NCBI GenBank assembly: GCA_963789955.1
Contig: CAWBMV010000034.1
Coordinates: 704,001-768,000, forward strand
Reading direction: 5' to 3'
DNA length: 64,000 bases
DNA from: an uncultured Candidatus Rokubacteria bacterium
Lineage (GTDB): Bacteria > Methylomirabilota > Methylomirabilia > Rokubacteriales > CSP1-6
Part shown: positions 24,135-57,556 of the stretch, in pieces
Numbering within the stretch: position 1 is the stretch's first letter
Layout of the letters: each line of letters opens with the position of its first letter
The notes under the pieces: generated by a model
Database searches by the model: none
Told to the model about the DNA's origin: nothing
What the model saw: only the letters and a program-made list of their open reading frames with translations
Program-made: the position numbers and the translations under genes

Positions 24135-24827
24135 ATGGCCCGCGAGGTTCTCGTAGTCGAAGACGAGCCGGATATCCGCCGGCTCGTCGTCCTGCACCTC
24201 GAGCGCGAGGGCTTCCGCTGCCGAACCGCCACCACCGGATCCGACGCGCTCCGTGAAGTGAAGGCGGCGGTTCCCGATCTGGTGGTCCTGGATCTCATGC
24301 TCCCCGAGGTCGACGGCCTGGAGGTGTGCCGCCGGCTGCGGCGCGATACGAGCACGGCGGCGATCCCGATCATCATGCTCACCGCCAAGTCCGACGAGGT
24401 CGACCGGATCGTCGGGCTCGAGATCGGGGCCGACGATTACATCGGCAAGCCGTTTTCTCCGAAAGAGCTCGTCGCGCGCGTCCGGGCGGTGCTGCGGCGC
24501 TCGCAGCCGAACCAGGCGACGCCGGTACTCACGGGGGGGCCGATCACGCTCGACGCGGCCCGCCACGCCGTGAGCTTGAACGGCCAGGCCATCGTCCTGA
24601 CGCCGAAGGAGTTCGACCTCCTCCAGGCGCTCCTCGAAGCGGCCGGCCGCGTGCTCTCGCGCGAGTTCCTCCTCAACCGCGTATGGGGTTACGCCCGCGC
24701 CGACGTGATCGAGTCGCGCACCGTCGACGTGCACGTCCGGCGCCTGCGCGCGAAGCTCGGCGATGCCGGGAGCCGGATCGCGACGGTCAAGTCGATCGGC
24801 TATCGCTTCGAGACTGATCCGCCATGA
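24135..24827 (+). CDS. phoB: PhoB/PhoP-like OmpR family response regulator
   Basis: VVEDE, LDLMLP, GADDYI.KPFSP, SRTVDVHVRRLR; adjacent to a PhoR-like kinase. Confidence 0.85.
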   Translation: MAREVLVVEDEPDIRRLVVLHLEREGFRCRTATTGSDALREVKAAVPDLVVLDLMLPEVDGLEVCRRLRRDTSTAAIPIIMLTAKSDEVDRIVGLEIGADDYIGKPFSPKELVARVRAVLRRSQPNQATPVLTGGPITLDAARHAVSLNGQAIVLTPKEFDLLQALLEAAGRVLSREFLLNRVWGYARADVIESRTVDVHVRRLRAKLGDAGSRIATVKSIGYRFETDPP

Positions 24828-26674: not shown

Positions 26675-27160
26675 TTACGACCGGCCGGGCGCGGTGTCCC
26701 AGCCGAAGAAGTCGCGCGCCCACACGAACGTCCCCACGCCGGCCGCCATCGCCGCGTCGCGATCCTTCGCGGAGTCGCCGACGTGGGTCGAAGCGCTCAA
26801 GGCCACGTCGTGGAGGCGAGCCAGCTCGCGGAACATCCCCGGCTTGGGCTTGCGGCAGTCACAACCGTCGGCGTCCGTGTGCGGACACAGCCGCCATCCG
26901 GTGAACGGTCCTCCGAGCTGCTCGTTGGCCCATGCGAATCGCTTCGTCACCTCGGCCTCGGAAATCTCGCCCGTCGAGATCCGCGCCTGATTCGACACGA
27001 TGAAGCAGACGTCGAAGCGAGGACGCTCGCGGGCGAGCGTCGCCACGACGTTGTCCATGAGCACGGGGTGACCCGCTTCATCCACGACCGTCCGGCTGTG
27101 TCTGGTGAGGGCGAGCGTGCCGCCCCAGTCGATGAACAGCGCACGCTGCGAGCGCGACAT
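26675..27160 (-). CDS. HAD-IIIA family phosphatase (GmhB/HisB-N-like)
   Basis: FIDWGGTL, VSNQ, CPH..CDCRKPKPGM, VGDS.KD. Confidence 0.8.
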   Translation of the reverse strand: MSRSQRALFIDWGGTLALTRHSRTVVDEAGHPVLMDNVVATLARERPRFDVCFIVSNQARISTGEISEAEVTKRFAWANEQLGGPFTGWRLCPHTDADGCDCRKPKPGMFRELARLHDVALSASTHVGDSAKDRDAAMAAGVGTFVWARDFFGWDTAPGRS

Positions 27161-27355
27161 CGCGCGACCGTAGCATGCCGCCGATCGCCGTCGCCACATA
27201 TTTGCCGAAACTTCATGGTATCGACACACGACCTGACCCTAGGCTCACGTCATGCCCGTGTCGCCGTCGCCCGTCCTCGACCGATCGAAGTGGCACGAGC
27301 TCGTCTAGCGACCGCCGAACACTCGTAAATCCCCGCCGCACCGGGCGCGTGGCCC

Positions 27356-27394
27356 GTCACTGAAACTTCACGCGGAGAGTGATAGACCGTTCAC
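27356..27394 (+). promoter_or_regulatory. Pho-box-like direct repeats upstream of the PHP/hydrolase/GH3 operon
   Basis: GTCAC 27356, TTCAC 27367, GTGAT 27379, TTCAC 27390 (11/12/11 bp spacing). Confidence 0.5.
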
Positions 27395-27418
27395 ACTCCG
27401 CCGCCAGACTCGTCTGCA

Positions 27419-28156
27419 ATGAGAACCAGTACGTACGGTCGCGCCGACCTGCACGTGCACACGCTGTGGAGCGACGGCGCCCAGCGTCCCGAGGCGATCG
27501 TGGAAGCCGCCCACGATCGTCAGGTCGACGTGGTGGCCATCACCGACCACGACGAGATCCGCGGGGCGCTGCGCGCGCGCGACTGGGCGCGCGAACATCC
27601 CGAGCTCGGCGTCGACGTCGTCGTCGGTGAAGAGATCAGCACGCTCAACGGCCACCTCCTCGGCCTGTTCCTCGAGGAGTGCGTGCCGCCCGGCCTCAGC
27701 GCGCTCGACACGATCGGCGAGATCCACGCGCAGGGCGGCCTCGCGGTCGCCGCCCACCCGTTTCATCCGCTCCGGGGTGTGAGCCGCGGCCACGTCTCGA
27801 TCGGGCGGATGATTCGCGATCTGCCGCTCGACGCGATCGAGGCGGTGAACAACGCCGGCGTGTTCTCGGCGCCCTACAACGCGTGGGCGGCGCTGCGCAA
27901 CCTGGAGCTCATGCTGCCGGTGACCGCCGGCAGCGACGCCCACGACGTCTGGTACGTCGGCAGCGCGGTCACCCGCTTCGAGGGACACGACTCGGCGGCG
28001 CTGCGCCGGGCCCTTCTGGCCGGCCGCACGCGCGCCCACGTCGACTGGTCGTGGACCGTCGGCAAGCTCCCCTTTCATCTGGCCGTGCAGGTCCGTGCCG
28101 CCTATCGATTTCTCCGGCGCGATCGGCAACGCATCAGCGTGGGAACTCTGCCGTGA
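27419..28156 (+). CDS. PHP domain phosphoesterase
   Basis: DLHVHT..SDG, AITDHD, GEEI, AAHPF, AGSDAH. Confidence 0.9.
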   Translation: MRTSTYGRADLHVHTLWSDGAQRPEAIVEAAHDRQVDVVAITDHDEIRGALRARDWAREHPELGVDVVVGEEISTLNGHLLGLFLEECVPPGLSALDTIGEIHAQGGLAVAAHPFHPLRGVSRGHVSIGRMIRDLPLDAIEAVNNAGVFSAPYNAWAALRNLELMLPVTAGSDAHDVWYVGSAVTRFEGHDSAALRRALLAGRTRAHVDWSWTVGKLPFHLAVQVRAAYRFLRRDRQRISVGTLP

Positions 28157-28184
28157 CGAGGCAGCGCTCTATGAGGAGGCCGAT

Positions 28185-28968
28185 ATGAGTACGCCAACCC
28201 ATACGCGATTTCGCTGGCTGGAGCGTGGCGTGGGCGAGCCCGTGCTGCTGCTGCACGGGCTGCTGGGCGAGATGGACCAGTGGGAGTCCACGCTCGAGAG
28301 CGCTGGGTCCGTTTCGCCGGCCGATCGCGCTCGAGCTGCCGATCTTCGATCCCGACCTGACCGAGGTGTCGGTGCCGGCTCTGGCCAGCTATGTGCGCCG
28401 CTTCATGGAAGCGATCGAGCTGCCGCCCGCGATCGTCTGCGGCAACTCACTCGGCGGCCACGTCGCGCTCGAGCTGGCGCTGTCGTGCCCGGGATGGGTC
28501 GACGGGCTGATTCTCACCGGCTCGTCCGGGCTGTTCGAGCGGACCTTCACGAGCCACGTGCCGCACGTGCCGACCCGCGCCTACGTGCGCGAGCGGATGG
28601 AAGAGATCTTCTACGATCCGAGCCTGGTCACGCCCGAGTGGGTGGAATCGATCCGCCGCATCGTCACCACGCGCCGCACCGCGCTGCGGGTACTTCAGGT
28701 GGCCCGCGCGGCCAAGCGCCACAATGTCGAGGAGCGGCTGAGCCAGATCCGTGTCCCGACCCTGCTCGTGTGGGGCAAGGACGACCGCATCACGCCGAGC
28801 GACGTCGCCGAGCGTTTCCACGCGCGCATCCGGGGCTCGCAGCTCGTGTACCTGCCCAACTGCGGCCACGCGCCGATGCTCGAGCGACCGGAGGCGTTCA
28901 ACGCGGCGGTCGGCGACTGGCTCGTCGAGACCCGTGCCCGCCGCGCGCTCCTCGGAGAACGCTCGTGA
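28185..28968 (+). CDS. Alpha/beta fold hydrolase; frameshift near 28300
   Basis: LLLHGLLG, GNSLGG nucleophile elbow, WGKDD, CGHAP; GAGGAGG RBS. Confidence 0.85.
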
Positions 28969-30527
28969 TCGAACGGGTCGGCGGCGCGGCGCTCCGCGTC
29001 TACCAGGCGCACCGCCGCCGCGCGCTCGAGGGTGTGGCGCGCGACGCCGAGCCGCGTGCAGGAGGCGACCCTGCTCGATCTGGTGAACTCGGCCCGCGGG
29101 ACCGCGTTCGGACGCTCGCATCGCTTCGAGCAAATCCGTTCCGTCGCCGACTATCAGGCGCGGACGCCGCTCGGCGACTATCTGCGCTTTCAGCCGCTCT
29201 GGACGCGGGCCATCAACGGCGAACGCGATCTCACCTGGCCGGGGCGGCCCCGCTACTGGGTGAAGACGTCGGGCACCACCGCGGGCGACAAGACGATTCC
29301 GGTGACCCCCGAGGCGTTCCGCGCTCATCGGAAGGGCGGCTGGGACGCGTTGTTGATCGCCGCCGAGCGCGGCGGCTTCGAGAGTATCGCGGGCGGGCCG
29401 CTGCTGTTTCTCGGCGGGTGCACGAGCCTGAAGCCGATCGGGCAGGGCTGCTGGGTCGGCGATCTCTCGGGCCTCATGGTGCAGGACCTGCCGCCCGGTT
29501 TCCGCTCGCGCTATTCGCCCGGGCGCGACATCGCGTCGATCCCGGACTGGGACCAGCGGATCGACGCCGTCGCCGAGCTGATCCAGCATCAGGACCTCCG
29601 ACTGATCTCCGGGATGCCGTCATGGCTCCTGATCCTCTTCGAGCGCGTCGCGCGCGCCCGGCGCGCGCGGGTCGGCCCGTGGCGAGCCTGGGTGAGTGCT
29701 GGCCGAACCTGAGCGCTCTCATCCACGGCGGCGTCTCGTTCGCACCGTACCGCGTGACCGTCGAGGAGTGGATGGGACGGCCGATCGAGTACGTCGAGGT
29801 GTATCCCGCCTCGGAAGGCTTCGTCGGGCTCCAGACCGAGCGCACGGGCGGGCTGACGCTCATGCTCGACTACGGAATCTTCTACGAGTTCGTGCCGGTC
29901 GAGGATCTGGGCCGCGCGCGGCCGCGGCGGCATACGGTCGCCGACGTCGAGCTCGACCGACCCTATGCGGTCGCGCTGACGACTTCCGCCGGGCTCTGGT
30001 CCTATCTGCTGGGCGACACGGTCCGCTTCACCGCGCGCGATCCGCTCCGTCTCGTGATCACCGGGCGCACGCGCCACTTCGTGAACGCGTTCGGCGAGAA
30101 CGTCATCATCGAGGAAGTGGAGCAGGCCCTGGTGGTCGCCTGCCGCCGGACGGGCGCCGAGCCGGGGGAGTTCACGGTCGCGCCGCGCTATCCGTCGGCC
30201 GGCGAGCCGCGTGGCGGCCACGAGTGGCTGGTCGAGTTCCGCATCCCGCCGCGTGACCGGGACGTCTTCGTGCGCGAGCTGGACGAGGCACTGGCCGCGC
30301 TCAACACCGATTACCGCACCAAGCGGACCGACGACGTCGGCATGATCGCCCCGCGGCTCGTCGAGATGCCGCAGGGCTCGTTCCATCGATGGATGCGTGA
30401 AGCCGGCAAGCTGGGCGACCAGCACAAGGTTCCTCGCGTCCTGAACGATCGCGCCGTCGTCGAGGCGCTGCTGGCCGCGACCGGCGCACGCGAGAGGGAG
30501 CCGCTCGTTCACTCGGTAGGCTCCTAA
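28965..30527 (+). CDS. GH3 family acyl-acid amido synthetase-like protein; two frameshifts
   Basis: KTSGTTAGDKTIP, YPASEGF, GIFYEFVP, YLLGDTV, GDQHKVPR across ORFs 29032 and 28095. Confidence 0.85.
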   Translation: MIERVGGAALRVYQAHRRRALEGVARDAEPRAGGDPARSGELGPRDRVRTLASLRANPFRRRLSGADAARRLSALSAALDAGHQRRTRSHLAGAAPLLGEDVGHHRGRQDDSGDPRGVPRSSEGRLGRVVDRRRARRLREYRGRAAAVSRRVHEPEADRAGLLGRRSLGPHGAGPAARFPLALFARARHRVDPGLGPADRRRRRADPASGPPTDLRDAVMAPDPLRARRARPARAGRPVASLGECWPNLSALIHGGVSFAPYRVTVEEWMGRPIEYVEVYPASEGFVGLQTERTGGLTLMLDYGIFYEFVPVEDLGRARPRRHTVADVELDRPYAVALTTSAGLWSYLLGDTVRFTARDPLRLVITGRTRHFVNAFGENVIIEEVEQALVVACRRTGAEPGEFTVAPRYPSAGEPRGGHEWLVEFRIPPRDRDVFVRELDEALAALNTDYRTKRTDDVGMIAPRLVEMPQGSFHRWMREAGKLGDQHKVPRVLNDRAVVEALLAATGAREREPLVHSVGS

Positions 30528-43839: not shown

Positions 43840-44975
43840 GCGAGGTGGTCCTCGCCAACGCGCGCGTGGTCATGCGCGACGAGATCGTCCACGGCGCCGT
43901 TCATGTCGTCGCTGGACGCATCGCGGACGTGGACCCGACGCGGGCGATCGGGCCGGGGGCGATCGATCTCGAGGGCGACTACGTGATGCCCGGCATCGTC
44001 GAGCTGCACACCGACGTCCTCGAGAAGCACGCGTTTCCGCGTCCGAGCGCCCGCTGGCCGGAGGTCGCGGCGGTCGTCGCGCACGACGGGCAGCTCATCG
44101 CCGCCGGCATCACGACCGTGCTCGACAGCCTCGCGATCGGGTACGTCTACGACGGCGGCCAGCGCGCCCGCAATCCGCTCCCTCTCATTGCTGCGATCGA
44201 GCGGGGGCGGGCGGCCGGACTGCTGAAGGCCGACCACCTGCTGCATCTGCGATGCGAGGTGTCGACCGAGCACGTCGTGACCGACTTCGCGCCGCACGCC
44301 GGCAACCCGCTCGTGCGTCTCGTGTCGCTGATGGACCATTCGCCCGGCCAGCGTCAGTTCACGAACGTCGCGAAGTATCGCGAGTACAACCAGGGCAAAT
44401 ACGGATTGAGCGATGCCGAGATCGATGCGCTGATCGAGAAGCGGATCGCCGACCGGGCGAGGTACGGCGACGCCCATCGCGCCGCGCTCCTGCGACTCGC
44501 CGAGTCGGGTCGCGTGCCGCTCGCCAGCCACGACGACGCGACGACCGCTCACGTCGAGGAGGCGGTCAAGGCCGGCATGGTCATCGCGGAGTTCCCCACG
44601 ACCCTCGAGGCCGCGCGGGCGGCGAGGGCGTATGGACTGGCCGTCATCGCCGGCGCTCCCAACCTCGTGATGGGGCGGTCCCACTCCGGCAATGTCTCGG
44701 TGGGAGACCTCGCCGGGGCGGGTCTCCTCGACATCCTGTCGTCGGACTATGTGCCGGCGAGCGCGCTGCATGGCGCGTTCCTGCTCCATCAGTTGCACGC
44801 GTGGCCCTTGCCCGATGCGATCGCGTGCGTGACCTCGACGCCGGCCGAGGGGGTCGGTCTCGATGATCGCGGAGAGATCGCGCCGGGCCGATGCGCCGAT
44901 CTCCTGCGGGTGCGGGTGGTCGACGACATTCCGCTGGTCGTCGCGGTCTGGCGCGACGGACTCCGGGTTGCCTGA
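43836..44975 (+). CDS. phnM: Alpha-D-ribose 1-methylphosphonate 5-triphosphate diphosphatase
   Basis: PGIVELHTD, HLRCE, MDHSPGQRQF, ASHDD, AEFPTT, LSSDYVP. Confidence 0.93.
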   Translation: MSEVVLANARVVMRDEIVHGAVHVVAGRIADVDPTRAIGPGAIDLEGDYVMPGIVELHTDVLEKHAFPRPSARWPEVAAVVAHDGQLIAAGITTVLDSLAIGYVYDGGQRARNPLPLIAAIERGRAAGLLKADHLLHLRCEVSTEHVVTDFAPHAGNPLVRLVSLMDHSPGQRQFTNVAKYREYNQGKYGLSDAEIDALIEKRIADRARYGDAHRAALLRLAESGRVPLASHDDATTAHVEEAVKAGMVIAEFPTTLEAARAARAYGLAVIAGAPNLVMGRSHSGNVSVGDLAGAGLLDILSSDYVPASALHGAFLLHQLHAWPLPDAIACVTSTPAEGVGLDDRGEIAPGRCADLLRVRVVDDIPLVVAVWRDGLRVA

Positions 44976-44987
44976 GGCCCGCGGACG

Positions 44988-45887
44988 ATGGCCGCCGAGT
45001 TTCTCGACCAGCCGGTGAAGCGAGAGCCGGCGGTCGCCGGGGATCGGCGGGCCGCGGCGGCATCCGAGATCGCGGGGCTCGCCGGAAAGATCGCGCTCGA
45101 CTATTTCGAGCGCGCCGAGGTGTCCTGGAAGGCGGACGACTCGATGGTGACCGAGGCGGACGTGGCGATCCAGTCCTGGCTCGAGGACGAGATCGCCGCG
45201 GCGTTCCCGGACGACGGAATCCTGGGCGAGGAGGGGCTGACGCCCAGGAGGCTCCGGCCGGGCGCCCGCTTCGTCTGGGTCATCGATCCCGTCGACGGCA
45301 CCAACAACTTCGGCCGGGGAATCCCGGGCTTCGCGATCTCGGTCGGCGTCTTGCGCGACGGGCTGCCGTTCGCAGGTGCCGTCTACGATCCGGTCTCCAG
45401 CCAGCTCTTCACGGCATGCGTCGGCCATGGGGCGTGGCTCAACGGGCGCCGCCTCAGGGTCGAACCGGTTGCTCTGAGCTCGCGCTCGCTCTTCTCGATC
45501 CGCTCGCCCTTCTCGGGCGACGTGCCGGGCTACGTCCACGAGTGGCTCACGCGCTATCGGCTGCGCCGATTCGGATCGACCGCGCTTCAGCTATGCTACG
45601 TCGCCGCCGGTGCGCTCGCGTTGGTGCACGACCATCGCGCCTCGCTCTGGGACATTGCCGGCGCCGCCCCCGTTCTTCTCGAGGCGGGCGGCGTCCTCAC
45701 CGCCGAGAACGGCGCGCCACTGTTCCCGGTCGACCCGAACGCGTACGGCGGGGAGCCGATCGCGTTCCTCGCGGGCGATCCGACCGGGCATCAGATGAGC
45801 CTTGCCGACATCCGTCGTGCGCACGGCGGGCCGGAACGAGATCGGGCGGAGTCGCCCAGCGCTCTCGAGAGCGCTTCCGGAAGCTGA
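44988..45887 (+). CDS. Inositol monophosphatase family protein
   Basis: VTEAD, ILGEE, WVIDPVDGTNNF, RRFGS, WDIAGA...EAGG. Confidence 0.92.
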   Translation: MAAEFLDQPVKREPAVAGDRRAAAASEIAGLAGKIALDYFERAEVSWKADDSMVTEADVAIQSWLEDEIAAAFPDDGILGEEGLTPRRLRPGARFVWVIDPVDGTNNFGRGIPGFAISVGVLRDGLPFAGAVYDPVSSQLFTACVGHGAWLNGRRLRVEPVALSSRSLFSIRSPFSGDVPGYVHEWLTRYRLRRFGSTALQLCYVAAGALALVHDHRASLWDIAGAAPVLLEAGGVLTAENGAPLFPVDPNAYGGEPIAFLAGDPTGHQMSLADIRRAHGGPERDRAESPSALESASGS

Positions 45888-45924
45888 CACGGCTTCTCCG
45901 TTCCCGATGGCCGGGCCGGGGAAT

Positions 45925-45951
45925 TTCACGCTTCCGTCATCATTTCGTAAC
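45925..45951 (+). promoter_or_regulatory. Pho-box-like repeats upstream of the degenerate PhnC-like gene
   Basis: TTCAC 45925, GTCAT 45936, GTAAC 45947 (11-bp period). Confidence 0.6.
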
Positions 45952-45965
45952 GATCCGCGTAGACC

Positions 45966-46703
45966 ATGCCGGCCATGATCGAGTTGCTCGGAGTCGGCGC
46001 GCCTCGAGAGGACGGCGGCTGGAGGCTCCATCGCGTCTGCGCGAGCTTCCAGCGGGGCGAGGTGACTCTCGTCGTCTCGCGTCTGCCCGAGGAGCGGGAT
46101 GCGCTGCTGGACGCGGTCGCCGCCCGTATCGTTCCCGACGAGGGGCGCGTCTGGGTTTCTCACGTGCCGGTGTCGCGCGACACGGTCCGCCGCATCCGTG
46201 GAATGGTCGTGGAAGCCGACGTGCACGCCCGGCCGGTCGAGCATCGCTCGCTGCTCTGGAACGTGCTCGTCGCCGGCAAGTCCGGACATCGCGCGCTCCC
46301 CGGGCTCTTGCGCCTGCCGCGCAAGTCGGAGCGCCTCGCCGCGAGGCGCGCGCTCGAGCGCGTCGGGCTGGCAGGTCGTGAGGTCGAGACCGCATCCGGC
46401 CTCGGCGCGGTCGATCGGGCGCGGCTCGCGCTCGCGAGCGCGCTGGTGACGACGCCGGAGGTGCTGGTGGCGCGCGAGATCGATCGCGGGCTCGACGGCG
46501 CCGAGGCGGCGACCGTGCGCGCCCTGCTACGATCGCTCGCTCATCGCGAGCGGCTCGCGGTGCTGGCCAGCGCCGCCACGCCGGCCGCCGCGTCGGACTT
46601 CGCGGATCGTCTCGTCGCGATCGCCGACGGTCTGCTCGTCTTCGACGGCGCGCCGGCCGACTTCGGCGGTCAGCGCGTCGCCTGGCGCTTCGGCACCGCG
46701 TAG
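45966..46703 (+). CDS. PhnC-like ABC ATPase fold protein with degenerate catalytic motifs
   Basis: PhnC-like scaffold (NVLVAG, ARRALERVGL, FADRLVAIADGLLVFDGAP); Walker A replaced by SRLPEERDA and Walker B by LVAREID. Confidence 0.7.
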   Translation: MPAMIELLGVGAPREDGGWRLHRVCASFQRGEVTLVVSRLPEERDALLDAVAARIVPDEGRVWVSHVPVSRDTVRRIRGMVVEADVHARPVEHRSLLWNVLVAGKSGHRALPGLLRLPRKSERLAARRALERVGLAGREVETASGLGAVDRARLALASALVTTPEVLVAREIDRGLDGAEAATVRALLRSLAHRERLAVLASAATPAAASDFADRLVAIADGLLVFDGAPADFGGQRVAWRFGTA

Positions 46704-46733
46704 TCCCGCCCGGCACCTCCGAGCACTTTTTAC

Positions 46734-46913
46734 TTGTCCACACTGTCCACAGGGCAACCCCCCGTCTGTCCCCAGCAACACACTATTTGCGGTCCTGTAA
46801 TACCCAAGCAACAATATATTGGGTACGCTGGGCCGGTGCTCACGCGTACGACCGGTTCCCTTCGGGTTGGTGGTTGTTTTGCAGTGTGGATGGCTGTGGA
46901 CAACTGTGGATGA
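46734..46913. promoter_or_regulatory. Cluster of five DnaA-box-like 9-mers around NrdR-box-like sites
   Basis: TTGTCCACA 46734, CTGTCCACA 46743; reverse boxes TGTGGATGG 46885, TGTGGACAA 46895, TGTGGATGA 46905; palindrome CAATATATTG 46812-46821. Confidence 0.6.
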
Positions 46914-46936
46914 TTCTCCGAGAGGAGGCGAACGGT

Positions 46937-47737
46937 TTGAAGCGGATCGATACCCACTCGCACCCGAAGATGTCCAAGCACTTCAAGTTCGACCCGAGGT
47001 CGGTGGAGCGCATGGTGCGCATGGCCGGACGGGTCGGGCTCGACGGTCTCGCGCTCACCGAGCATTTCCACGGGACGGATTTCTGGGCGGTCCACGAGCA
47101 TCTCGAGCGCACGTATCCGGTCGAGGGCGGCGTCTTCTGGGCCGGGAACGGCTCGCGCTGATTCCGGGAGCCGAGATCAACATCCGCGAGGGCGCGCACG
47201 TCATCGTCCTCGGTGAGGTCGCCGAGCTGCGCCGGCTCGATCGCGCGTTTCCCGAGTGGCTGTCGCACCGCTACGAGCCGACCCTGCGCGAGTTCCTCGA
47301 CGTCAGCGAATACTTCGACGTCGCGCGAATCGGCGCGCACATGTTCCGTCCGAAGAAAGAGCTCGGAAAATTCCGCATCGACGATCTGCGGCGACTGCAC
47401 GCGCTCGAGGTGAACGGCAAGGATTTCGGGACGGAGGTCATGTTGCTCGTGCAAGCGCGCGCGCTCGGCTTGCCGATCGTCGCGGGAAGCGACGCGCATC
47501 ACTGGCTCCAGCTCGGCGTTCGCCACACGCTCGATGCACGTCGACGAGATCAGAATCGCGAGCGTGTTGAAGACGATCAGAGAGGGCTTGACGGGCTTTG
47601 CAACATCCCCCTATACTCCGCTCCGCGTCAGGGGCGCTAAGTCCCTGAAAAACATTACGAAACTGTTACGAAAATGTTACGGCAGAGTGATCGCGAGCGG
47701 AACCCCGCGGCCTGCAGTCTCGACCGCCAGCAGCTGA
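46937..47737 (+). CDS. PHP domain phosphoesterase (second); two frameshifts
   Basis: GAGGAGG RBS plus TTG; RIDTHSH, LALTEHFH, PGAEI, GAHMFRP, AGSDAHH. Confidence 0.82.
47654..47691. promoter_or_regulatory. Pho-box-like repeats upstream of the GAK operon, inside the 3' end of the PHP gene
   Basis: ATTAC 47654, GTTAC 47665, GTTAC 47676, GTGAT 47687; CTGTTACGAAAATGTTAC is close to the E. coli Pho box. Confidence 0.6.
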
Positions 47738-47898
47738 TTGCCCCGTAACTGATGCCCCGGGAAGCGGCCGGCCGGGGCGAGATCGTAGCCGAAGCCGCTC
47801 GCAGACCGTCAGTCGAGAACCGCCAACTACGAAGGCCGTCGCACCCGTACCGCCGCCGGAGACCACGACGCTCGGCGCGGCCGGCCCAGAGGGAGCAG

Positions 47899-48171
47899 GT
47901 GAGCGCCGCGATTCCGGCGAAGTTCCACGCTCGAGCGCGCCGGGACGCCGCGGCGTTCTATCTGACGCAGCTGGCCAAAGGAGTCCTCGCGGGCGAGCTG
48001 GCGATCGCCGTCGGAGATCAGCAGATCCAGCTCGCGACGTCCGAGTTCGTGATTCTGAAGATCGAGGCCAAGCAGCGGAAGCGCGCGAACCACGTCAGCG
48101 TCAAGCTTCGATGGCCGAGGCGTCCACTGATCCGGGTCGCTGCGGCAAGGGGAGATCGTGATGGGAGATAG
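47899..48171 (+). CDS. Amphi-Trp domain protein 1
   Basis: AAFYLTQLAKGVLAGEL...LKIEAK..VSVKLRW; alternating amphipathic strands ending in Trp; similar to the next two ORFs. Confidence 0.65.
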   Translation: MSAAIPAKFHARARRDAAAFYLTQLAKGVLAGELAIAVGDQQIQLATSEFVILKIEAKQRKRANHVSVKLRWPRRPLIRVAAARGDRDGR

Positions 48172-48418
48172 CCGGGAGTTCGAGTTCGAAGGTGCCGCAA
48201 CGCCCTCGGAGGCCGCCGACGCGCTGAACCGTATCGCGGACGGGATCCGGGCACGCTCGCTGTCGCTCTCGATGGGCGAGGAAGAGATCACCGTCTATCC
48301 GGACGGCGACCTCGCGATGGAGATCGAGGCGAGCGAGAAGAAGGGAAAGGCGAAGATCGAGATCGCCATCGCCTGGAAGCGCGCCAAGCCAGATGACGAC
48401 GATGAGGACGAGGACTAG
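48161..48418 (+). CDS. Amphi-Trp domain protein 2 with an acidic tail
   Basis: EAADALNRIADGI...MEIEASEKKGKAKIEIAIAWK, tail DDDDEDED. Confidence 0.8.
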   Translation: MGDSREFEFEGAATPSEAADALNRIADGIRARSLSLSMGEEEITVYPDGDLAMEIEASEKKGKAKIEIAIAWKRAKPDDDDEDED

Positions 48419-48435
48419 GCCGAAAGGGGCTCACG

Positions 48436-48717
48436 ATGGCAAAGAACAGCGTTCAGTTCGCCCGGATCGCGTCGCCCGAGGAGATCGCGGAGTATCTCAC
48501 GTCGCTGGCCGTCGGGCTCAAGCGGGGTGAGATCAGCCTCGAGTCCGGCGAGCGCTCGCTCCATCTGTCGCCCGCGAGCGACGTCAAGCTCGAGCTGAAG
48601 GTGGGACAGAAGGAGCGCAAGGGCCGCATCGAGCTCGAGATCGGCTGGAAGCGCTCGACGGCGGCGAAGACGTCCGAGCTGCGCGTGGCGGTCGGGCAGC
48701 GCCCGGCGCGCGCGTAG
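48436..48717 (+). CDS. Amphi-Trp domain protein 3
   Basis: EIAEYLTSLAVGLKRGEISL...LELKV..KERKGRIELEIGWK. Confidence 0.82.
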   Translation: MAKNSVQFARIASPEEIAEYLTSLAVGLKRGEISLESGERSLHLSPASDVKLELKVGQKERKGRIELEIGWKRSTAAKTSELRVAVGQRPARA

Positions 48718-48766
48718 CCGTTTCCCGCTCCGCTCCGCGACCCGATCCCGGATCAGACATCGATCC

Positions 48767-50365
48767 GTGACTAGCGTCCTGCGCGAAGACCTGGGCCAGG
48801 ACCTCGCCATGATGGCGCGGCTCGTCCAGTCGCAGCTCATCCGCGGCATGACGGCCTTCTTCCAGCGCGACGCGCGGCTCGCCGAGCAGGTGACCCAGAA
48901 GGACGACCAGGTCGACAACCTGCTCGGCCTCATCGAGGTGAAGTGCTTCGAGCGCATCGCCGGCGAGGAGCCCAACGGCGTGCGCTCGCGCCAGCTCCGC
49001 GGCGTCTTCCGGGTCGCGCTGAACCTCGAGAAGCTCGGCGACTACGCCGTCAACATCGCCGAGCAGGCGGTGCACGTCTCGCGCCTCAAGGCCCGTCCGA
49101 TCCCGTTCGACCTGGCCGGGCCGGCGCGCGTCGCGCTGGCCGCGCTCGACGAGGTCATCACCGCCTTCACCGACGCCAGCGCCGAGAAGGCCAAGCACGC
49201 CTGCCGCTGCGAGGTCGAGCTCGACCGGCAGTACCGCGATGCGCTGCAGGAAGCGTTTCGCCGCCTCGCGCAGCCGCACCCGGACCCGGCGTTCGTGATC
49301 ACGAACCTCTTCGTCGCGAAATTCCTCGAGCGGATCGGCGACTCGATCCTGAACATCGGCGAGACGACGCTCTTCATCCTGACCGGCGAGCGGCTCAAGC
49401 TGCATCAGTACCTGCACCTCGAGCAGGTGGCCGGTGCGCTCGCCCCGCACGGGGAGGGCGCGCTCGACTTCCGCCAGATCTGGGGCGGCATCAGCGGGGC
49501 GCGGGTCGGCCGGCTCGCGGTCGGCCAGAGCGAGCCGCTGATCTGGAAGGAGGGCGACGAGCGGAAGATCGACGAAGAGATCCGCGAGATGGACGCGTGG
49601 AACCGGATCGTCCCCGGGCTCGTGCCCGACGTCAAGGCGCGCCATCGCGAGGAGGGCCGGCTCTCGTTCCTGGGCCAGTTCCTGCGCGGGAGCCTGCTGC
49701 GCGACATCTACATCACCCGGACCTGGGACGACAAGGTCCGCGCCACTCGCCGGCTCCTCGAGACCGTCCGCGACATCTGGTCGACCACGCTCGTGAAGGA
49801 GCCGCCGCGAATCGACTACGCCCGGCAGATCCGCGAGCGGCTGCCCGAGCTCTTCGCGCTCCACCCGAAGCTCGAGACCTTGCGCGGCGGCGAGAGCCGC
49901 GTGTTCGGGATCGCCCACGGCTCGCTGGCCGATCTGCTCGAGCGCGCCGCCGAGCTCGAGGCCTCGCTGGCGCCGCCGGTCTCGGTCCGGCTCCACGGCG
50001 ACTTCAACGCCAACAACGTGGTCTACGACGCCGAGTCGGACCGCGTGCACTTCATCGACGTGCACCGGAGCGGTCACGGCGACTACCTGCAAGACATCGG
50101 CGTGCTGCTGGTCTCGAACGTGCGCAATCCGATCGAGGACGGGCGCGTCGCCGGCGACCTGGCGCGGCTCAACGACCGCATTCGCGAGTTCGCGCTCGAG
50201 TTCGCCCGCCGGATCGGCGACGACCACTTCGAGACGCGGCTGACGCTCTCGCAGGCGCGCTCGTTCATCACCTCGGGTCGCGTCGTGGCCGACTTCGAGT
50301 TCGCGCGGTCGATCTTCCTGCAGGGCGTGCGTCTGCTCGAGCGCGCGACCGCGCTCGCCGCGTGA
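48767..50365 (+). CDS. PhoU domain / aminoglycoside-phosphotransferase-like kinase fusion (GAK-associated)
   Basis: N-terminal PhoU repeats (NLEKLGDYAVNI, FLERIGDSILNIGE); C-terminal LHGDFNANNV and FIDVHRS. Confidence 0.85.
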   Translation: MTSVLREDLGQDLAMMARLVQSQLIRGMTAFFQRDARLAEQVTQKDDQVDNLLGLIEVKCFERIAGEEPNGVRSRQLRGVFRVALNLEKLGDYAVNIAEQAVHVSRLKARPIPFDLAGPARVALAALDEVITAFTDASAEKAKHACRCEVELDRQYRDALQEAFRRLAQPHPDPAFVITNLFVAKFLERIGDSILNIGETTLFILTGERLKLHQYLHLEQVAGALAPHGEGALDFRQIWGGISGARVGRLAVGQSEPLIWKEGDERKIDEEIREMDAWNRIVPGLVPDVKARHREEGRLSFLGQFLRGSLLRDIYITRTWDDKVRATRRLLETVRDIWSTTLVKEPPRIDYARQIRERLPELFALHPKLETLRGGESRVFGIAHGSLADLLERAAELEASLAPPVSVRLHGDFNANNVVYDAESDRVHFIDVHRSGHGDYLQDIGVLLVSNVRNPIEDGRVAGDLARLNDRIREFALEFARRIGDDHFETRLTLSQARSFITSGRVVADFEFARSIFLQGVRLLERATALAA

Positions 50366-51252
50366 AGATCGCCGTCGTCGGCCAGCCGGGCGCGTGGTCC
50401 ACCGAGCGTCTGGCGGACGCGCTGCGCGCCTGCGGGACGGAAGCCACGGTCGTCGATCTCGCCGCCTGCAGCCTGCGACTTCCAGATCGACGGCTCTTCC
50501 ATCGCGGCGAGCCGCTCGAGGGGCTCGACGGCGCCGTCGTCAAGAAGCTCGGCGACACCGCCGACGGCTGGAGCGTCCAGGAGCGCATCGGCATGTTGCG
50601 TCACCTGGAGGCCGCGGGTGTTCCGGTGCTGAGCGCCCCGGATTGCCTCCACGTCGCGGTGAACCGCTATCGCATGACCGCGGAGCTCGTCCGGGCCGGG
50701 CTGCCGGTGCCGCCGACGACGATCACGGAAGACGTCGACGAAGCGGCGGCCGCCGTCGCGCGCTTCGGCACCGCCGTGATCAAGCCGTTGTTCACCTCGA
50801 AGGGCCGCGGCATGCGCCGGCTCGAGCCGACGCGCGAGCTCCGCCGCGAGCTCGAGTCGCATCGCGACGGCGGGCTCGGGCCGTTCTATCTCCAGCGCTT
50901 CGTGAAGCATCCCGGACGCGACCTCGGCGTGGCCGTGCTCGACGGACAGTGCATCGGCGCCTACTGGCGGGTCGCCGCCGGCGATCAGTGGATGACGACG
51001 ATCCTCTCCGGCGGCCACTACGAGAAGGCGGACATCACGCCCGAGACGGCGGCGATGGCCGTGGCCGCCGCGCGGCACTTCGGCCTGGTCTTCACGGGCG
51101 TCGACCTGATCGAAGATCCGGACGGACGCTTCACCGTGCTCGAGGTCAGCGCGTTCGGCGGATTTCGTGGACTCTTGAAGGGCTGCGGAGTCGACGCGGC
51201 GCCGATGCTCGCCGACGTCGTGCTACGCCGCTTCCGCGAGGCGCGAGGTTGA
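50362..51252 (+). CDS. RimK-like ATP-grasp enzyme of the GAK system
   Basis: KIAVVG.PGAWSTE.LADA, IKPLFTSKGRGM, GRDLGV, FTGVDL, EVSAFGGFRGL. Confidence 0.88.
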   Translation: MKIAVVGQPGAWSTERLADALRACGTEATVVDLAACSLRLPDRRLFHRGEPLEGLDGAVVKKLGDTADGWSVQERIGMLRHLEAAGVPVLSAPDCLHVAVNRYRMTAELVRAGLPVPPTTITEDVDEAAAAVARFGTAVIKPLFTSKGRGMRRLEPTRELRRELESHRDGGLGPFYLQRFVKHPGRDLGVAVLDGQCIGAYWRVAAGDQWMTTILSGGHYEKADITPETAAMAVAAARHFGLVFTGVDLIEDPDGRFTVLEVSAFGGFRGLLKGCGVDAAPMLADVVLRRFREARG

Positions 51253-52299
51253 GCCCCGAATCTCTCATCGAGGCGATCGAGACACCGCACAGCCTCTCGC
51301 TCTGCTTCGCGGAGGTGCCGATCCAGGTCAAGACCAACGATCCCGAGGTCCGGGCTCGGCTCGCGTCGTACTTCCGTCCCTATGTGGTCAGCGGCCGTCC
51401 GCCTCTGGCGGAAGTCAGTCTGATCCAGGGGTCTCTGCCGATCCCCGGCGAGTTCGCGGACCTGGCGCGGGAAGGAGGCCGGCGGCCGAAGGAGGCGACG
51501 CAGGAGGTCGCCGGCGGGCGCCTGATCCTCAAGCGGGCGACAGGAGTTCTGATCGGGCTCTGGCCCGGCGGCGCCTTCGCGGCCGGCGACATCCGCGCGA
51601 ATCTGAACCAGGGCATCAACCTCGTCAACAACTGTTACGCCAAGATCGTGCTCCGCCGAGGACACGCGCTGCTCCACGCCTCCGCCGTGTCGCGCGACGG
51701 GCGCACCGCGGTGCTGGCCGGTCCGCCCGGGGCGGGGAAGTCCACCTCCGCGCTCCATCTCGTCGAGGCCGGTTTCCGCTGTCTCTCGAACGATCGGGTC
51801 CTCGCCAAGCCGATGGCGGACATGGTGGAAGCGCTCGGCTATCCCAAGCAGCCCCGCGTCAACCCGGGCACGCTCCTCGGCCATCCGCGGTTATCGGCGC
51901 TGCTCGAGCCGGCCGACTGCGCCGCGCTCGCCGCGCTGCCCGCGGGTGAGCTGTGGGAGCTCGAGCGGAAATCGGACGTGGACCTCGACAGCGTCTACGG
52001 CCCCGGCACCGTCGACCTGCGCGGTCGCATGGAAGCCCTGGTGCTCTTGAAGTGGCGGCGGGACGGGCGAGGGCTCGACGTCCGCCGGCTCTCGGCCGAC
52101 GACGCGCTCGAGGCCCTGCCGCTCGTCTACAAGAACCTCGGCGCCTTCGACCTCGACCGCGCTCCCCGGTGCCGCGATGACCGACGCCGAGCGCGAAGCG
52201 TTCCGCGAGCTATTCGGTCGGGTCGCAGTGGTCGAGGTCACCGGCGGGGTCGATTTCGGCGGGCTCGTCGGCGTCGTCGACAAGCTCCTGTCCGTCTGA
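51249..52299 (+). CDS. HprK-related kinase B of the GAK system; frameshift near 52165
   Basis: LLHASAV, Walker A GPPGAGKST, LSNDR, PKQPRVNPGT. Confidence 0.85.
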
Positions 52300-52322
52300 G
52301 ACCTCTCGACTCCGCCGGGCAC

Positions 52323-52362
52323 CTGTCACCCAAGATTTACCCGTCCGTCATCGTCCCGTAAC
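52323..52362 (+). promoter_or_regulatory. Pho-box-like repeats upstream of the second phoB
   Basis: (CT)GTCAC 52325, TTTAC 52336, GTCAT 52347, GTAAC 52358 (11-bp period, four units). Confidence 0.7.
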
Positions 52363-52387
52363 CCCCTCGAGCCGACACTCCTGAGCG

Positions 52388-53176
52388 ATGGGCACCCCAC
52401 AGGAGGCCAACATCAACATGATGACCACGGATCGGCGCCGGGTTCTGCCGGGGCCCGCTCAGCCGGGCCGCCAGCGCCTCGGACGGGTGCTCCTCGTCGA
52501 GGACGAGCAGGACGTCGCCGAGCTGATCCGCTACAACCTCACGAAGGAAGGCTACGACGTATTCCTGACCGCGAACGGAAATGACGCGCTCCGTCTGGCC
52601 CGTGAGCATCGTCCCGATGTGCTCCTGCTCGACATCATGGTCCCCCAGCTGAACGGCTGGGAGGTGTGCCGCCGGCTCAAGAAGGACCCCGACCTCGCGC
52701 AGATTCCCGTGATTATGGTCAGCGGCCGCGTCGAGGAAGGTGACAAGGTCCTCGGCTTCGAGGTCGGCGCCGACGACTACGTGACCAAGCCCTTCTCGCC
52801 CCGCGAGCTGATCGCCCGGATCCGTGCCGTGCTCCGTCGGGGCCGTCCGGCGGACGCGAAGGAAAAGAAGGCCAGCCTCAAGGTCGGCGATCTGGAGATC
52901 GACCGCTACCGCTTCGAGGTTCGGATGAAGGGACGCCAGGTCGAGCTCACCCCCAAGGAGTTCGAGCTCCTGGCCACCCTGGTCGGGACGCCCGGTCGCG
53001 TGTTCGGGCGCGAGGAGCTTCTCGACATGGTCTGGGGCCGCGACGGCTTCGTCGAGCCCCGGACGGTGGACGTGCACGTGGCGCGTCTGCGCGGGAAGTT
53101 CTCCGCCGCGAAGCTCGAAGAGCCCGGAATCGAGACCGTCAGAGGTGTCGGCTACCGCTTCAAGGACAAGCCGTAA
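52388..53176 (+). CDS. phoB: Second PhoB-like response regulator
   Basis: LVEDE, LLDIMVP, GADDYVTKPFSPREL, PRTVDVHVARLR, IETVRGVGYRF; directly upstream of pstS. Confidence 0.85.
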   Translation: MGTPQEANINMMTTDRRRVLPGPAQPGRQRLGRVLLVEDEQDVAELIRYNLTKEGYDVFLTANGNDALRLAREHRPDVLLLDIMVPQLNGWEVCRRLKKDPDLAQIPVIMVSGRVEEGDKVLGFEVGADDYVTKPFSPRELIARIRAVLRRGRPADAKEKKASLKVGDLEIDRYRFEVRMKGRQVELTPKEFELLATLVGTPGRVFGREELLDMVWGRDGFVEPRTVDVHVARLRGKFSAAKLEEPGIETVRGVGYRFKDKP

Positions 53177-53181
53177 TTCTC

Positions 53182-53219
53182 GTAGCAGATTCGTAACACC
53201 ACCGAAACCTTCACGCAAC
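53182..53219 (+). promoter_or_regulatory. Pho-box-like repeats upstream of pstS
   Basis: GTAGC 53182, GTAAC 53193, GAAAC 53204, GCAAC 53215 (11-bp period). Confidence 0.6.
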
Positions 53220-53259
53220 ACCGGACTGTAACCATAGACACCGACTGAGGAGGAGAGAG

Positions 53260-54305
53260 ATGAAGACTGCGTGGATCACGGCCCTGACATTGCTCGTGAC
53301 GAGCGCGTTCGCGCAGCCGGCCGCGGCCCAGACCTTGATCAACGGCGCCGGCGCGACGTTCCCGTATCCGATCTATTCGAAGTGGTTCGACGAGTACACG
53401 AAGGTCGATCCGGAGGTGCGGTTCAACTACCAGTCGATCGGCAGCGGCGGCGGCATCAAGCAGGTGACCGCGCGCACGGTCGACTTCGGCGCGTCCGACG
53501 GGCCCATGAACGACGAGCAGCTGAAGGCGGCTGCGTCCGAGCTGCTGCACATCCCGACCGTCATCGGTGCGGTCGTCGCGACCTATAACCTGCCGGGCTC
53601 CCCGAAGCTCAAGCTCACCGGCGACGTGCTCGCGGACATCTTCCTCGGGAAGATCACGAAGTGGAACGATGCGAAGATCGCCGCGCTCAACGCCGGCGTG
53701 TCCTTGCCGGACAGCCGATCGTCGTCGTGCATCGCTCGGACGGAAGCGGCACCACCTACATCTGGGTGGACTACCTCTCGAAGATCAGCTCCGAGTGGGA
53801 GAAGAAGGTCGGCCGCGGCACGTCGGTGAACTGGCCGGTCGGGCTCGGCGGCAAGGGCAACGAAGGCGTCTCGGGCCAGGTGAAGAACCAGCCGGGCGCG
53901 ATCGGCTACGTCGAGCTCGCCTACGCGGTGAAGAACAATCTCCCGGTCGCCTCGGTGAAGAACGCGGCCGACAAGTTCGTCGCACCCTCGATCGCGTCCA
54001 CGACGGCGGCCGCGGCCGGCGCGGCCAAGAGCATGCCGGACGATTTCCGTGTCTCGCTCACGAACCCGCCCGGTGACGAGGCGTACCCGATCGCCAGCTT
54101 CACGTGGCTGCTGGTCTACAAGGACCAGCCGAACGAGCTGAAGGGACGGGCGATCGTCAAGTTCCTGTGGTGGATGAGCCACGACGGACAGAAGTACGCC
54201 GACGACCTGCTGTACGCTCCGCTGCCGACGCCGGTGGTGAAGCAGATCGAGGCCAAGATCAAGCAGATCACCTACCAGGGCAAACCTCTGCTGGCGGGCC
54301 GCTAG
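53260..54305 (+). CDS. pstS: Phosphate ABC transporter substrate-binding protein; frameshift near 53712
   Basis: [43 protein letters not shown]. Confidence 0.95.
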
Positions 54306-56899: not shown

Positions 56900-57556
56900 A
56901 TGCAGCGCCATTTTCACGAAGAGCTGGATGCCCTCAAGCAGACTCTGCTGGCCATGGGCGGCCTGGTCGAGGATCAGATCCGCCGCGTGATGCGCGCGCT
57001 CCTGGAGCGGGACAGCGATCTGGCCCAGGAGGTCATCGACCGTGACCGGCAGGTGAACGCCTACGACGTCGAGATCGACGAGAAGTGCGTGGAGCTGCTG
57101 GCGCTCCACCAGCCGGCCGCCGGCGACCTGCGATTCATCACGACCGCGATGAAGATCGTGACCGATCTGGAGCGCATCGGTGATCAGGCGGTCAACATCG
57201 CCCAGCGGACGATCGAGCTGAATCCGGAGCCCCAGCTCAAGCCGTACGTGGATCTGCCGCGAATGGCGGAGAAGGCCCAGCGGATGGTGAAGGAGAGCCT
57301 CGACGCGTTCGTCAGCCGTGACACGGAGCTCGCGCGCCGGGTCTGTGGCGAGGACGCCGACGTCGACGCGCTCAAGGAGCAGATCTTCCGGGAGCTCCTG
57401 ACCTATATGATGGAAGATCCGAAGACGATCCCCCGCGCCATCCGGCTCATCCTGGTCTCGCGCTTCCTCGAGCGCGTGGCCGACCACGCGACCAACATCG
57501 CCGAGATGGTGGTCTACCTGGTCGAGAGCAAGATGGTTCGCCACATGCTCGCGTAA
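56900..57556 (+). CDS. phoU: Phosphate signalling protein PhoU
   Basis: MQRHFHEEL, QPAAGDLRFI, DLERIGDQA, LERVADHATNIAE. Confidence 0.95.
   Translation: MQRHFHEELDALKQTLLAMGGLVEDQIRRVMRALLERDSDLAQEVIDRDRQVNAYDVEIDEKCVELLALHQPAAGDLRFITTAMKIVTDLERIGDQAVNIAQRTIELNPEPQLKPYVDLPRMAEKAQRMVKESLDAFVSRDTELARRVCGEDADVDALKEQIFRELLTYMMEDPKTIPRAIRLILVSRFLERVADHATNIAEMVVYLVESKMVRHMLA

Follow-up and report, generated by a model that had tools for sequence, protein, structure and literature searches.

A deep-branching GAK-type locus with an intragenic, inverted PhoB-type array in the phosphate island of an uncultured Rokubacteria bacterium

The GAK system is a set of protein families that comprises amphi-Trp proteins (TIGR04354), an HprK-related kinase B (TIGR04355), an ATP-grasp enzyme (TIGR04356), a CofD-like protein (TIGR04357) and an XXXCH protein (TIGR04358). 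The locus described here lies in a window of 64,000 nucleotides (nt), the whole stretch of DNA that was analysed, from an uncultured Candidatus Rokubacteria bacterium (assembly GCA_963789955.1, contig CAWBMV010000034.1, positions 704,001 to 768,000 of the forward strand), and all coordinates below are those of the window. It consists of seven linked genes, encoding a PHP-domain metalloenzyme, three amphi-Trp proteins, a PhoU-APH fusion, a GAK-type ATP-grasp enzyme and kinase B, with neighbouring genes overlapping or spaced 17-49 nt apart and the first three GAK families standing in their usual order. Six of these genes had been listed in an initial annotation made from the letters alone, and profile searches recover all six as real (TIGR04354 three times, PF01895 with PF01636, TIGR04356 as best model, and TIGR04355); the seventh, the PHP gene, stands directly upstream of them. 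The locus is a real, deep-branching variant of a system that bears a name but has yet to be characterised, and its regulatory design is unusual. The window itself is a phosphate island that carries a phoB/phoR-like pair (24135-26374), alkaline phosphatase (30671), PhoD (34915), phnCDE and phnG-M, followed in order by an inositol-monophosphatase-family gene, a phnC-like gene, the GAK locus and phoB-pstSCAB-phoU. The genome assembly is 87% complete, with 5% contamination and many frameshifts.

The locus was compared with its own GAK family, of which 14 loci were counted, and with another 80 GAK loci, all of other phyla, which were the best 80 of at least 597 matches confirmed in a scan of species genomes; genes in these 80 loci were called with a simple open-reading-frame and clustering script, and their counts may be off by a few. 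In a quick tree the own family forms a deep-branching clade (7 rows, support 100). That the genes are of GAK type, as the initial annotation had it, is borne out for the amphi-Trp proteins and kinase B, which pass their cut-offs, and only in part for the ATP-grasp enzyme, which scores 278.2 bits against a cut-off of 300 and passes in none of 41 related genomes (0/41); the locus is therefore filed as a GAK-type variant. It further departs from typical GAK loci in having three amphi-Trp copies and neither a CofD-like nor an XXXCH gene. The CofD-like gene had been reported missing from the window, and tblastn of the 87%-complete assembly found neither gene, returning only CofD/YvcK-type matches at 26%. 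Both genes appear optional in GAK, since the former is present in only 42 and the latter in only 15 of the 80 other-phyla loci.

The PHP gene (46937..47737, forward strand) is recognised by its metal-ligand motifs and, on a relative's copy, by PF02811/PF13263. Among 251 genomes of the phylum, many of them incomplete and not independent of one another by descent, it occurs in 14, all of which belong to the 15 that carry kinase B, and it precedes the amphi-Trp genes in 12 of the 14 own-family loci, the exceptions being a contig that starts inside amphi-Trp 1 and one broken locus. The metal-ligand motifs are kept in 117-120 of 120 homologs. The window copy is interrupted by frameshifts near 47145-47148 and at 47533, but the extra bases are missing from relatives' contigs in public runs, the one at 47533 in the contigs of all four runs (4/4), and both frameshifts are likely assembly errors. 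The sole PDB match of a relative's PHP protein is PsfC (7RTY, E 2e-11). The PHP gene is closely preceded by ppx, ppk or pyrophosphatase genes in five of the 14 own-family loci.

The three amphi-Trp genes, the only ones in the genome, lie on the forward strand at 47899..48171 (protein 1, 90 amino acids (aa), isoelectric point (pI) 11.6, TIGR04354 37.8 bits against a cut-off of 31), 48161..48418 (protein 2, 85 aa with an acidic tail, pI 4.2, 63.7 bits) and 48436..48717 (protein 3, 93 aa, pI 9.9, 58.1 bits). The first probably starts at GTG 47899 rather than at ATG 47752, because the part upstream is not conserved. The triplication noted in the initial annotation stands, all three copies being above the cut-off, and is the rule in the own family (12/14 loci), compared with 4/80 loci in other phyla. 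An alignment of 111 of the 137 copies found shows W71 as the only invariant residue, with G31 nearly so, and no conserved Ser/Thr/His column, the best Ser/Thr column reaching 61/111; Asp or Glu stands at the C-terminus in 23/111, and a basic hairpin is kept, with Lys or Arg in 83, 75 and 90 of the 111. When four copies of protein 3 were modelled as pairs, a score of 0.77 was obtained (best control 0.01), with runs that agreed in at least 87% of contacts and model confidence (pLDDT) of at least 74, predicting an intertwined dimer; in the calibration, 20 of 30 solved pairs and 1 of 23 single chains attained the dimer mark, and the four-copy job does not resemble these cases. The monomer model had no fold match (best Z 2.7; no Foldseek match under E 0.9), and by sequence only designed proteins were matched. 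A half-CYTH barrel, considered as a possible fold, was not supported either, and this lack of support does not in itself make the fold new. A table in PMC13490349 places one amphi-Trp protein among the most abundant proteins of Dissulfuribacter thermophilus. A search of openly available full texts returned a single passing mention of amphi-Trp, no paper with the term "GAK system" and no published function for it. For amphi-Trp a role as scaffold or carrier fits better than one as substrate. As a separate observation, the XXXCH protein of one GAK locus (L083:5188-5799) starts, by eye, with an amphi-Trp-like strand-helix-strand segment before its XXXCH domain; beside this stands a weak TIGR04354 match of a 260-aa frame in genome G255.

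The first of the three ATP-using enzymes (48767..50365, forward strand, 532 aa) joins a PhoU part (PF01895, E 5e-33) to an APH/choline-kinase fold (PF01636, E 3e-9). Two PhoU repeats with acidic motifs and a complete kinase catalytic set thus share one chain, and full-length homologs retain both domains. In the APH domain K261, E271, H410-G-D412-x-N-x-x-N417, D431 and six Arg are invariant in 73/73 copies, which would give it an arginine-rich pocket unlike that of aminoglycoside kinases, while the PhoU acidic motifs are largely kept (E88 in 62/73, D153 in 67/73, E188 in 69/73, D192 in 67/73 and E199 in 71/73). The second enzyme, the 296-aa ATP-grasp protein (50362..51252, forward strand), has as its closest solved relatives RimK and LysX (E 1e-25) of the RimK/LysX/MptN alpha-L-glutamate ligases, and the methanopterin glutamate ligase MptN as its second-best model (189.8 bits). 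The ATP/Mg residues are common to both, K141, D248 and E261 being present in 70/70 copies. Unlike RimK, however, the window-type enzyme has Gly in place of R189 and ExS in place of ExN (G189 and S263, aligned to RimK R189 and N262, in 70/70 copies), Arg in place of the linker Lys, and extra invariant Lys61, Lys62 and Lys147, with R102 and R203 invariant as well. In RimK, R189 and N262 contact the acceptor glutamate (parts of PMC10092738 and PMC10375531), and this Arg marks the peptide-ligase clade (in part of PMC4431377). Because the equivalents of both residues are lost in 70/70 copies, the enzyme is unlikely to be a glutamate ligase; it could be a kinase, or else a ligase that acts on a different anion, with K147 standing in for the Arg. 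Profile comparison with the inositol-phosphate kinase ITPK1 gave a weak match only (E 1.8).

The third enzyme, kinase B (51249..52299, forward strand), scores 228.5 bits with TIGR04355 against a cut-off of 200 and passes on 298 of about 349 aa, being truncated by a frameshift near 52162-52166. Full homologs have 349 aa, and one of them (P0001) is unbroken and 95% identical to the window copy; the frameshift is likely an assembly error. With HprK it shares His143 (114/115), the Walker A pair K164-S165 (K164 in 115/115) and Asp182 (115/115), but it has Asn-Asp in place of Asp-Asp, and it does not pass the equivalog TIGR00679 (18.8 bits, cut-off 240). A modelled family member (P0262, pLDDT 95) aligns over the whole chain with PEPCK (1ii2; Z 16.2, root mean square deviation 4.5, 302 residues aligned, 11% identity), and its C-domain with HprK (Z 14.7, 132 aligned), so that the model points to a PEPCK-like two-domain fold. 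Near-invariant basic residues occur in both domains (K81, R91 and K95 in the N-domain; K200, R203 and K241 in the C-domain).

The regulatory regions were scored with a PhoB matrix built from 84 half-sites of relatives' phoB and pstS promoters. The initial annotation had given the six-gene operon a strong Pho box of its own; the element is real, ranking first of 13,543,994 genome positions with 29.7 bits, but it is not the upstream box of the operon. It is an inverted triple array (47650..47687, reverse strand, with the matrix match at 47650-47682) that falls within the last part of the PHP coding sequence, at about +27 to +59 relative to the start near 47624 that is predicted for an internal promoter, P2. 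P2 is a near-consensus sigma-70 promoter (TTGACG-18-TATACT; 47588..47617, forward strand), likewise inside the PHP coding end, and is the only sigma-70 promoter match in 44500-53500 (shuffle mean 0.4). The forward PhoB-type sites of the window rank lower in the genome, at 2 (phoA), 3 (phoB), 4 (the phnC-like gene), 5 (pstS), 13 (PHP) and 20 (phnC); ranks 3 and 5 are circular, as homologs of these sites are in the training set, and the others are not. The PHP frame crosses the array in 12/12 readable relatives, and in the window the extra base at 47533 masks this reading. Over P2 and the array, codons that are rare in 12 window genes (0.2-4.5%, with TTG at 3.7%, ACT at 4.5% and TTA at 0.2%) recur in 13 loci, namely TTG (Leu) in 12/13, ACT (Thr) in 13/13, TTA in 13/13 and ATT in 11/13; rare codons fixed exactly at these positions show that the DNA itself is under selection.

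The half-site of the array is identical to (c/t)GT(n)AC, the PhoB consensus that has been tested in Desulfovibrio (in parts of PMC3333781, including Table S7, and of PMC6456213), and the window arrays share with the D. vulgaris Pho boxes of the same sources both these repeats and an 11-nt period. Unlike those boxes, the strongest array of the window lies within a gene, in inverted orientation and behind a sigma-70 promoter. As a predicted site, read from its sequence, the array is a genuine PhoB-type element. A hexamer of the form nAnnnT follows the last half-site by 10-11 nt in 6/6 forward sites (by eye, a loose test), whereas no -10 is seen, by eye, at 10-11 nt on the array's own strand; an antisense promoter driven by the array was accordingly rejected. 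The geometry would instead be that of a repressor site or roadblock: as a general rule given in part of PMC6456213, repressor sites lie downstream of the promoter, and our literature search returned no report of PhoB repression from downstream sites. Among relatives the array scores best on the reverse strand in 10/12 and on the forward strand in 2/12. Contigs of relatives from RNA runs span pieces of the operon with shallow coverage, such that starts, strand and level are not readable from them; two contigs of one RNA run end at 47653, from which no conclusion is drawn.

Upstream of the PHP gene lies P1 (46773..46829, forward strand), a PhoB-type array of four half-sites with an 11-nt period and a -10-like TACGCT at 46824-46829, predicted to be a PhoB-activated promoter. 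It ranks 13 among the 22 distinct genome sites above 14 bits, its spacing from half-site to -10 matches that of five other Pho promoters of the window, and it is conserved in 12 aligned leaders. Overlapping its last half-site and the spacer is an NrdR-type palindromic box (46809..46824). The matrix for this box was made from 5 boxes conserved in ribonucleotide-reductase promoters of relatives; of the 11 regions looked at, 8 belonged to true orthologs, and a pattern selected the 5 that were used. With this matrix the box comes second of 6,772,643 positions, outscored only by the reductase promoter of the same genome and 1.1 bits above rank 3, and it is the best site of the locus in 12/12 relatives that have the PHP leader. 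The genome carries an nrdR gene. Known NrdR boxes are palindromic, overlap the polymerase site and mostly come in pairs three helical turns apart (part of PMC9110341), and the window shares with them a 10-nt C..G palindrome in this position. A second box, expected at a distance of about 31 nt, is weak in the window (1.2 bits), and with the same matrix the partner at the genome's own reductase promoter scores 0.1.

P1 is also flanked by five words of the type GTGGA(C/T) (46734..46912), which we take to be DnaA-box-like. No other 230-nt stretch of the genome has five such words, and theirs is the only cluster of at least three DnaA-like words within 400 nt. In relatives, the GTGGA(C/T) words also stand before the ribonucleotide reductase gene. 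The possibility that the cluster marks oriC was rejected, there being no GC-skew switch at this place and dnaA lying on another contig. Beyond the own family neither signal is enriched, the NrdR-type box being found at 1/124 GAK gene starts vs 3/317 controls, and DnaA-like sites showing no enrichment at GAK genes of other phyla. Several separate observations touch on these elements. The combination of DnaA-like words and NrdR-type box at P1 mirrors the promoter of a class II-like ribonucleotide reductase gene of the same genome (G000:C17:134865). An alphaproteobacterial GAK locus (L065) has an NrdR-type box of 20.4 bits, 62 nt before its first gene, which encodes a histidine phosphatase. A tandem NrdR-like pair stands just 3' of nrdR (G000:C6:252725-252766), before a 624-aa frame that by eye resembles a radical-SAM/B12-binding protein.

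Across the gene maps of the 80 other-phyla loci, the PhoU-APH fusion, which the window locus has in common with them, and the ATP-grasp and kinase B families are found in 74, 77 and 78, with the core order held in most. Where the locus is split, amphi-Trp genes occur elsewhere in the genome in 5/5 cases, and a full-length PhoU-APH gene in 3 of 4 genomes that lack it at the locus. Most accessory genes have phosphohydrolase folds, namely calcineurin-like (29), histidine phosphatase (30), divergent PHP (27), SixA-Nudix (22) and Nudix (19), the last of which have Ap4A hydrolases and diphosphoinositol-polyphosphate hydrolases as their nearest matches (E 1e-8 to 1e-5). The gene before amphi-Trp usually has a metallophosphoesterase fold, being either a divergent PHP (Atlas TM 0.55 to PHP clusters) or a calcineurin-like gene together with a histidine phosphatase; the calcineurin-like and divergent PHP genes co-occur in 0/80 loci, and the own-family PHP is a third type. 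Unlike other GAK loci, the window locus combines this PHP type of its own with the internal promoter, the inverted PhoB array and the NrdR-type box.

The phosphate link that had been proposed for the locus is general to GAK. Triple PhoB-type repeats of at least 12 bits stand before the first GAK gene in 14 of the 65 loci that could be scored out of 80, vs 11/289 controls (Fisher p 1e-5), and at 15 bits in 7/65 loci vs 5/289 control starts, with a matrix smoothed by hand and with related loci that are not independent. These sites are mostly forward and lie before a phosphoesterase or XXXCH gene. In the survey of GAK neighbourhoods that the initial annotation had called for, pst, pit, ppk, phoH or phoB-like genes occur within 10 kb in 15/80 loci, three of which rest on OmpR-type regulators that are putative PhoB only; no phn family recurs. 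In two split loci (L040 and L062) the ATP-grasp and kinase B genes adjoin those for phosphate acetyltransferase and acetate kinase, PhoB-type sites precede the ATP-grasp gene, and amphi-Trp and PhoU-APH stand together at another place in the genome. Candidates from published Desulfovibrio data did not hold: in the fitness data of D. alaskensis G20, as far as given in the consulted part of PMC5193443, no GAK gene is identifiable by its label, and Dde_3772-3774 and the phoU row there are other genes. DVU1475 is a PhoB target that goes by the name "PhoU family", but its coordinates suggest a spacing too short for the fusion with its partners. PMC5193443 is inconsistent on the phoU mutant whose fitness is 8 and 3.4, which is Dde_2385 in the table of supplement 3 and Dde_2835 in the text.

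Around the locus, the boundary to the downstream operon is marked by the forward PhoB-type array and -10 of phoB-pstSCAB-phoU (52323..52385, forward strand; the site that ranks third), which lies outside GAK; phoB follows GAK in 12/14 own-family loci, and a separate phoU gene (56903-57556) exists besides the fusion. Of the two PhoB-like regulators in the island (24135-26374 and 52388-53176), only the second has a PhoB-type site before it and only the first a kinase beside it. Upstream, at 45923-46703, is the degenerate phnC-like ABC ATPase gene, whose strong forward PhoB-type site ranks fourth, whose start falls a few bases past the -10 (leaderless-like) and which has no adjoining permease; it is kept upstream of PHP in several relatives. 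Between phoR and phoA (26675-30527) lie a HAD phosphatase, a second PHP gene, an alpha/beta hydrolase and a GH3-family gene, the last two of which recur beside GAK in four relatives (L026, L028, L029 and L033). On another contig (G000:C5:1-20261) the island recurs, as a further copy or as a haplotype, with the phoA end, phoD, phn, pst, ppx and ppk but without GAK or PHP; it shares the PhoB-type site of window position 45923, and a strain mixture in the bin is possible.

On balance we tentatively favour a reading in which the seven-gene operon runs a small-molecule phospho-pathway and PhoB turns P1, with the PHP gene, on and P2, with the core genes, down; as a whole it is plausible, though slightly more apt to fail than to hold. 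Three ATP-using enzymes with basic pockets would phosphorylate a soluble anionic small molecule stepwise, and the PHP enzyme, as a swappable phosphoesterase, would take phosphate off again. The PhoU domain might tie the first kinase to the phosphate level, with amphi-Trp proteins acting as non-catalytic dimers that organise or bind. P1 would be switched on by PhoB in starvation, gated by NrdR, and supply the PHP enzyme; P2, as a housekeeping promoter, would drive the amphi-Trp genes and the kinase genes, which PhoB bound at the inverted array behind it would damp. The lineage would thus make the compound when phosphate is plentiful and spend it when phosphate runs short.

A number of points weigh against this proposal. 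The P2 and inverted-array design is confined to the own family among the loci surveyed, and in other phyla the sites are mostly forward and before the first gene, which indicates induction of the whole operon there. Reverse-strand PhoB-type sites are enriched there too (10/65), and phosphate genes lie within 10 kb of GAK in only the 15 loci counted above. The array itself scores 18.1 bits in forward orientation, its half-site being nearly palindromic; a site lying behind a promoter can also help to activate transcription, and net repression is uncertain because P1 could read through the array. As to the enzymes, the only solved relative of the PHP protein, PsfC, is presumably a non-hydrolytic diiron enzyme, and a kinase with a PEPCK-like two-domain fold could still target a peptide, as lasso-peptide kinases do.

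A rival reading, built on the proposal of the initial annotation that a kinase and a ligase act on amphi-Trp proteins, is a protein-modification switch in which the kinases and the ATP-grasp ligase modify these proteins and a phosphoesterase reverses this. The constant company of amphi-Trp genes and enzymes would fit it, as would the closeness of RimK and LysX to the ATP-grasp enzyme, and relatives of HprK, SixA and YvcK do act around HPr-type phosphoproteins. A Ser at column 10 occurs in 56/111 amphi-Trp proteins, mostly of one subclass, but in none of the three window copies, and W71 alone is invariant. With neither a conserved Ser/Thr/His column nor a regular acidic C-terminus, and with the acceptor-binding Arg and Asn for peptide C-termini gone from the ATP-grasp enzyme in 70/70, amphi-Trp proteins do not look like kinase or ligase substrates. 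We therefore consider such a switch rather unlikely, and a small-molecule phospho-pathway fits better; of the earlier formula "modification or P-storage/signalling", the second half suits the data better than the first. Only marginally easier to entertain, and still unlikely, is biosynthesis or salvage of a nucleotide-derived compound or cofactor, induced whole in starvation and with the internal array for fine-tuning. The CofD/YvcK-like gene of 42/80 loci and the Nudix genes of many speak for it, as do the MptN match, the NrdR-type box with DnaA-like words at P1, and the forward sites before the first gene in other phyla. Yet the CofD-like gene is missing here, in an 87%-complete assembly, and in 38/80 loci, an MptN-type ligation would need the lost Arg and Asn, and the NrdR-type box is not enriched outside the own family. 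We regard as very unlikely that the PHP enzyme serves C-P lyase (phn) or phosphonate chemistry, with GAK handling a phosphonate or reduced-phosphorus intermediate. The phnCDE and phnG-M genes are directly upstream in the window, and phn genes are near GAK in 4/14 relatives; PsfC, the PDB match of the PHP protein, is an enzyme of the fosfomycin pathway. PHP, however, tracks GAK (14/15) and not phn, the phn-pst-ppx-ppk island of contig C5 has neither, and the 80 other loci show no recurrent phn family.

The small-molecule phospho-pathway, if read more boldly, would make GAK a widespread phosphate bank or signal built on a multiply phosphorylated small molecule, with three unrelated kinase folds that include an ATP-grasp enzyme turned kinase, sensing by PhoU, interchangeable phosphoesterases and, in this lineage, a make-to-spend switch under PhoB and a tie to DNA-precursor demand through NrdR and DnaA. 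It would then be a prokaryotic counterpart of inositol-pyrophosphate phosphate control; we think this bolder reading improbable. Eukaryotic inositol-pyrophosphate sensing, with its PPIP5K/ITPK1 ATP-grasp kinases, DIPP Nudix enzymes and SPX domains, does resemble the parts of GAK, the two having in common ATP-grasp, histidine phosphatase, DIPP-like Nudix and a helical phosphate-sensor domain, although this is an analogy only.

GAK is a widespread system named in databases, with at least 597 confirmed matches in species genomes, and the lineage concerned belongs to the abundant uncultured soil bacteria. Its carriers also include harmless species in culture, such as Marinobacterium lutimaris DSM 22012, Thalassospira lucentensis DSM 14000 and Desulfovibrio caledoniensis. 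The locus offers tests of the direction in which PhoB acts, of whether the ATP-grasp enzyme is a ligase, and of whether a product metabolite exists. It places a promoter and the top-ranked PhoB array of the genome in the coding end of a gene, together with predicted joint PhoB and NrdR-type control of one promoter, and if this control is true, phosphate status would be tied to deoxynucleotide supply in these bacteria.

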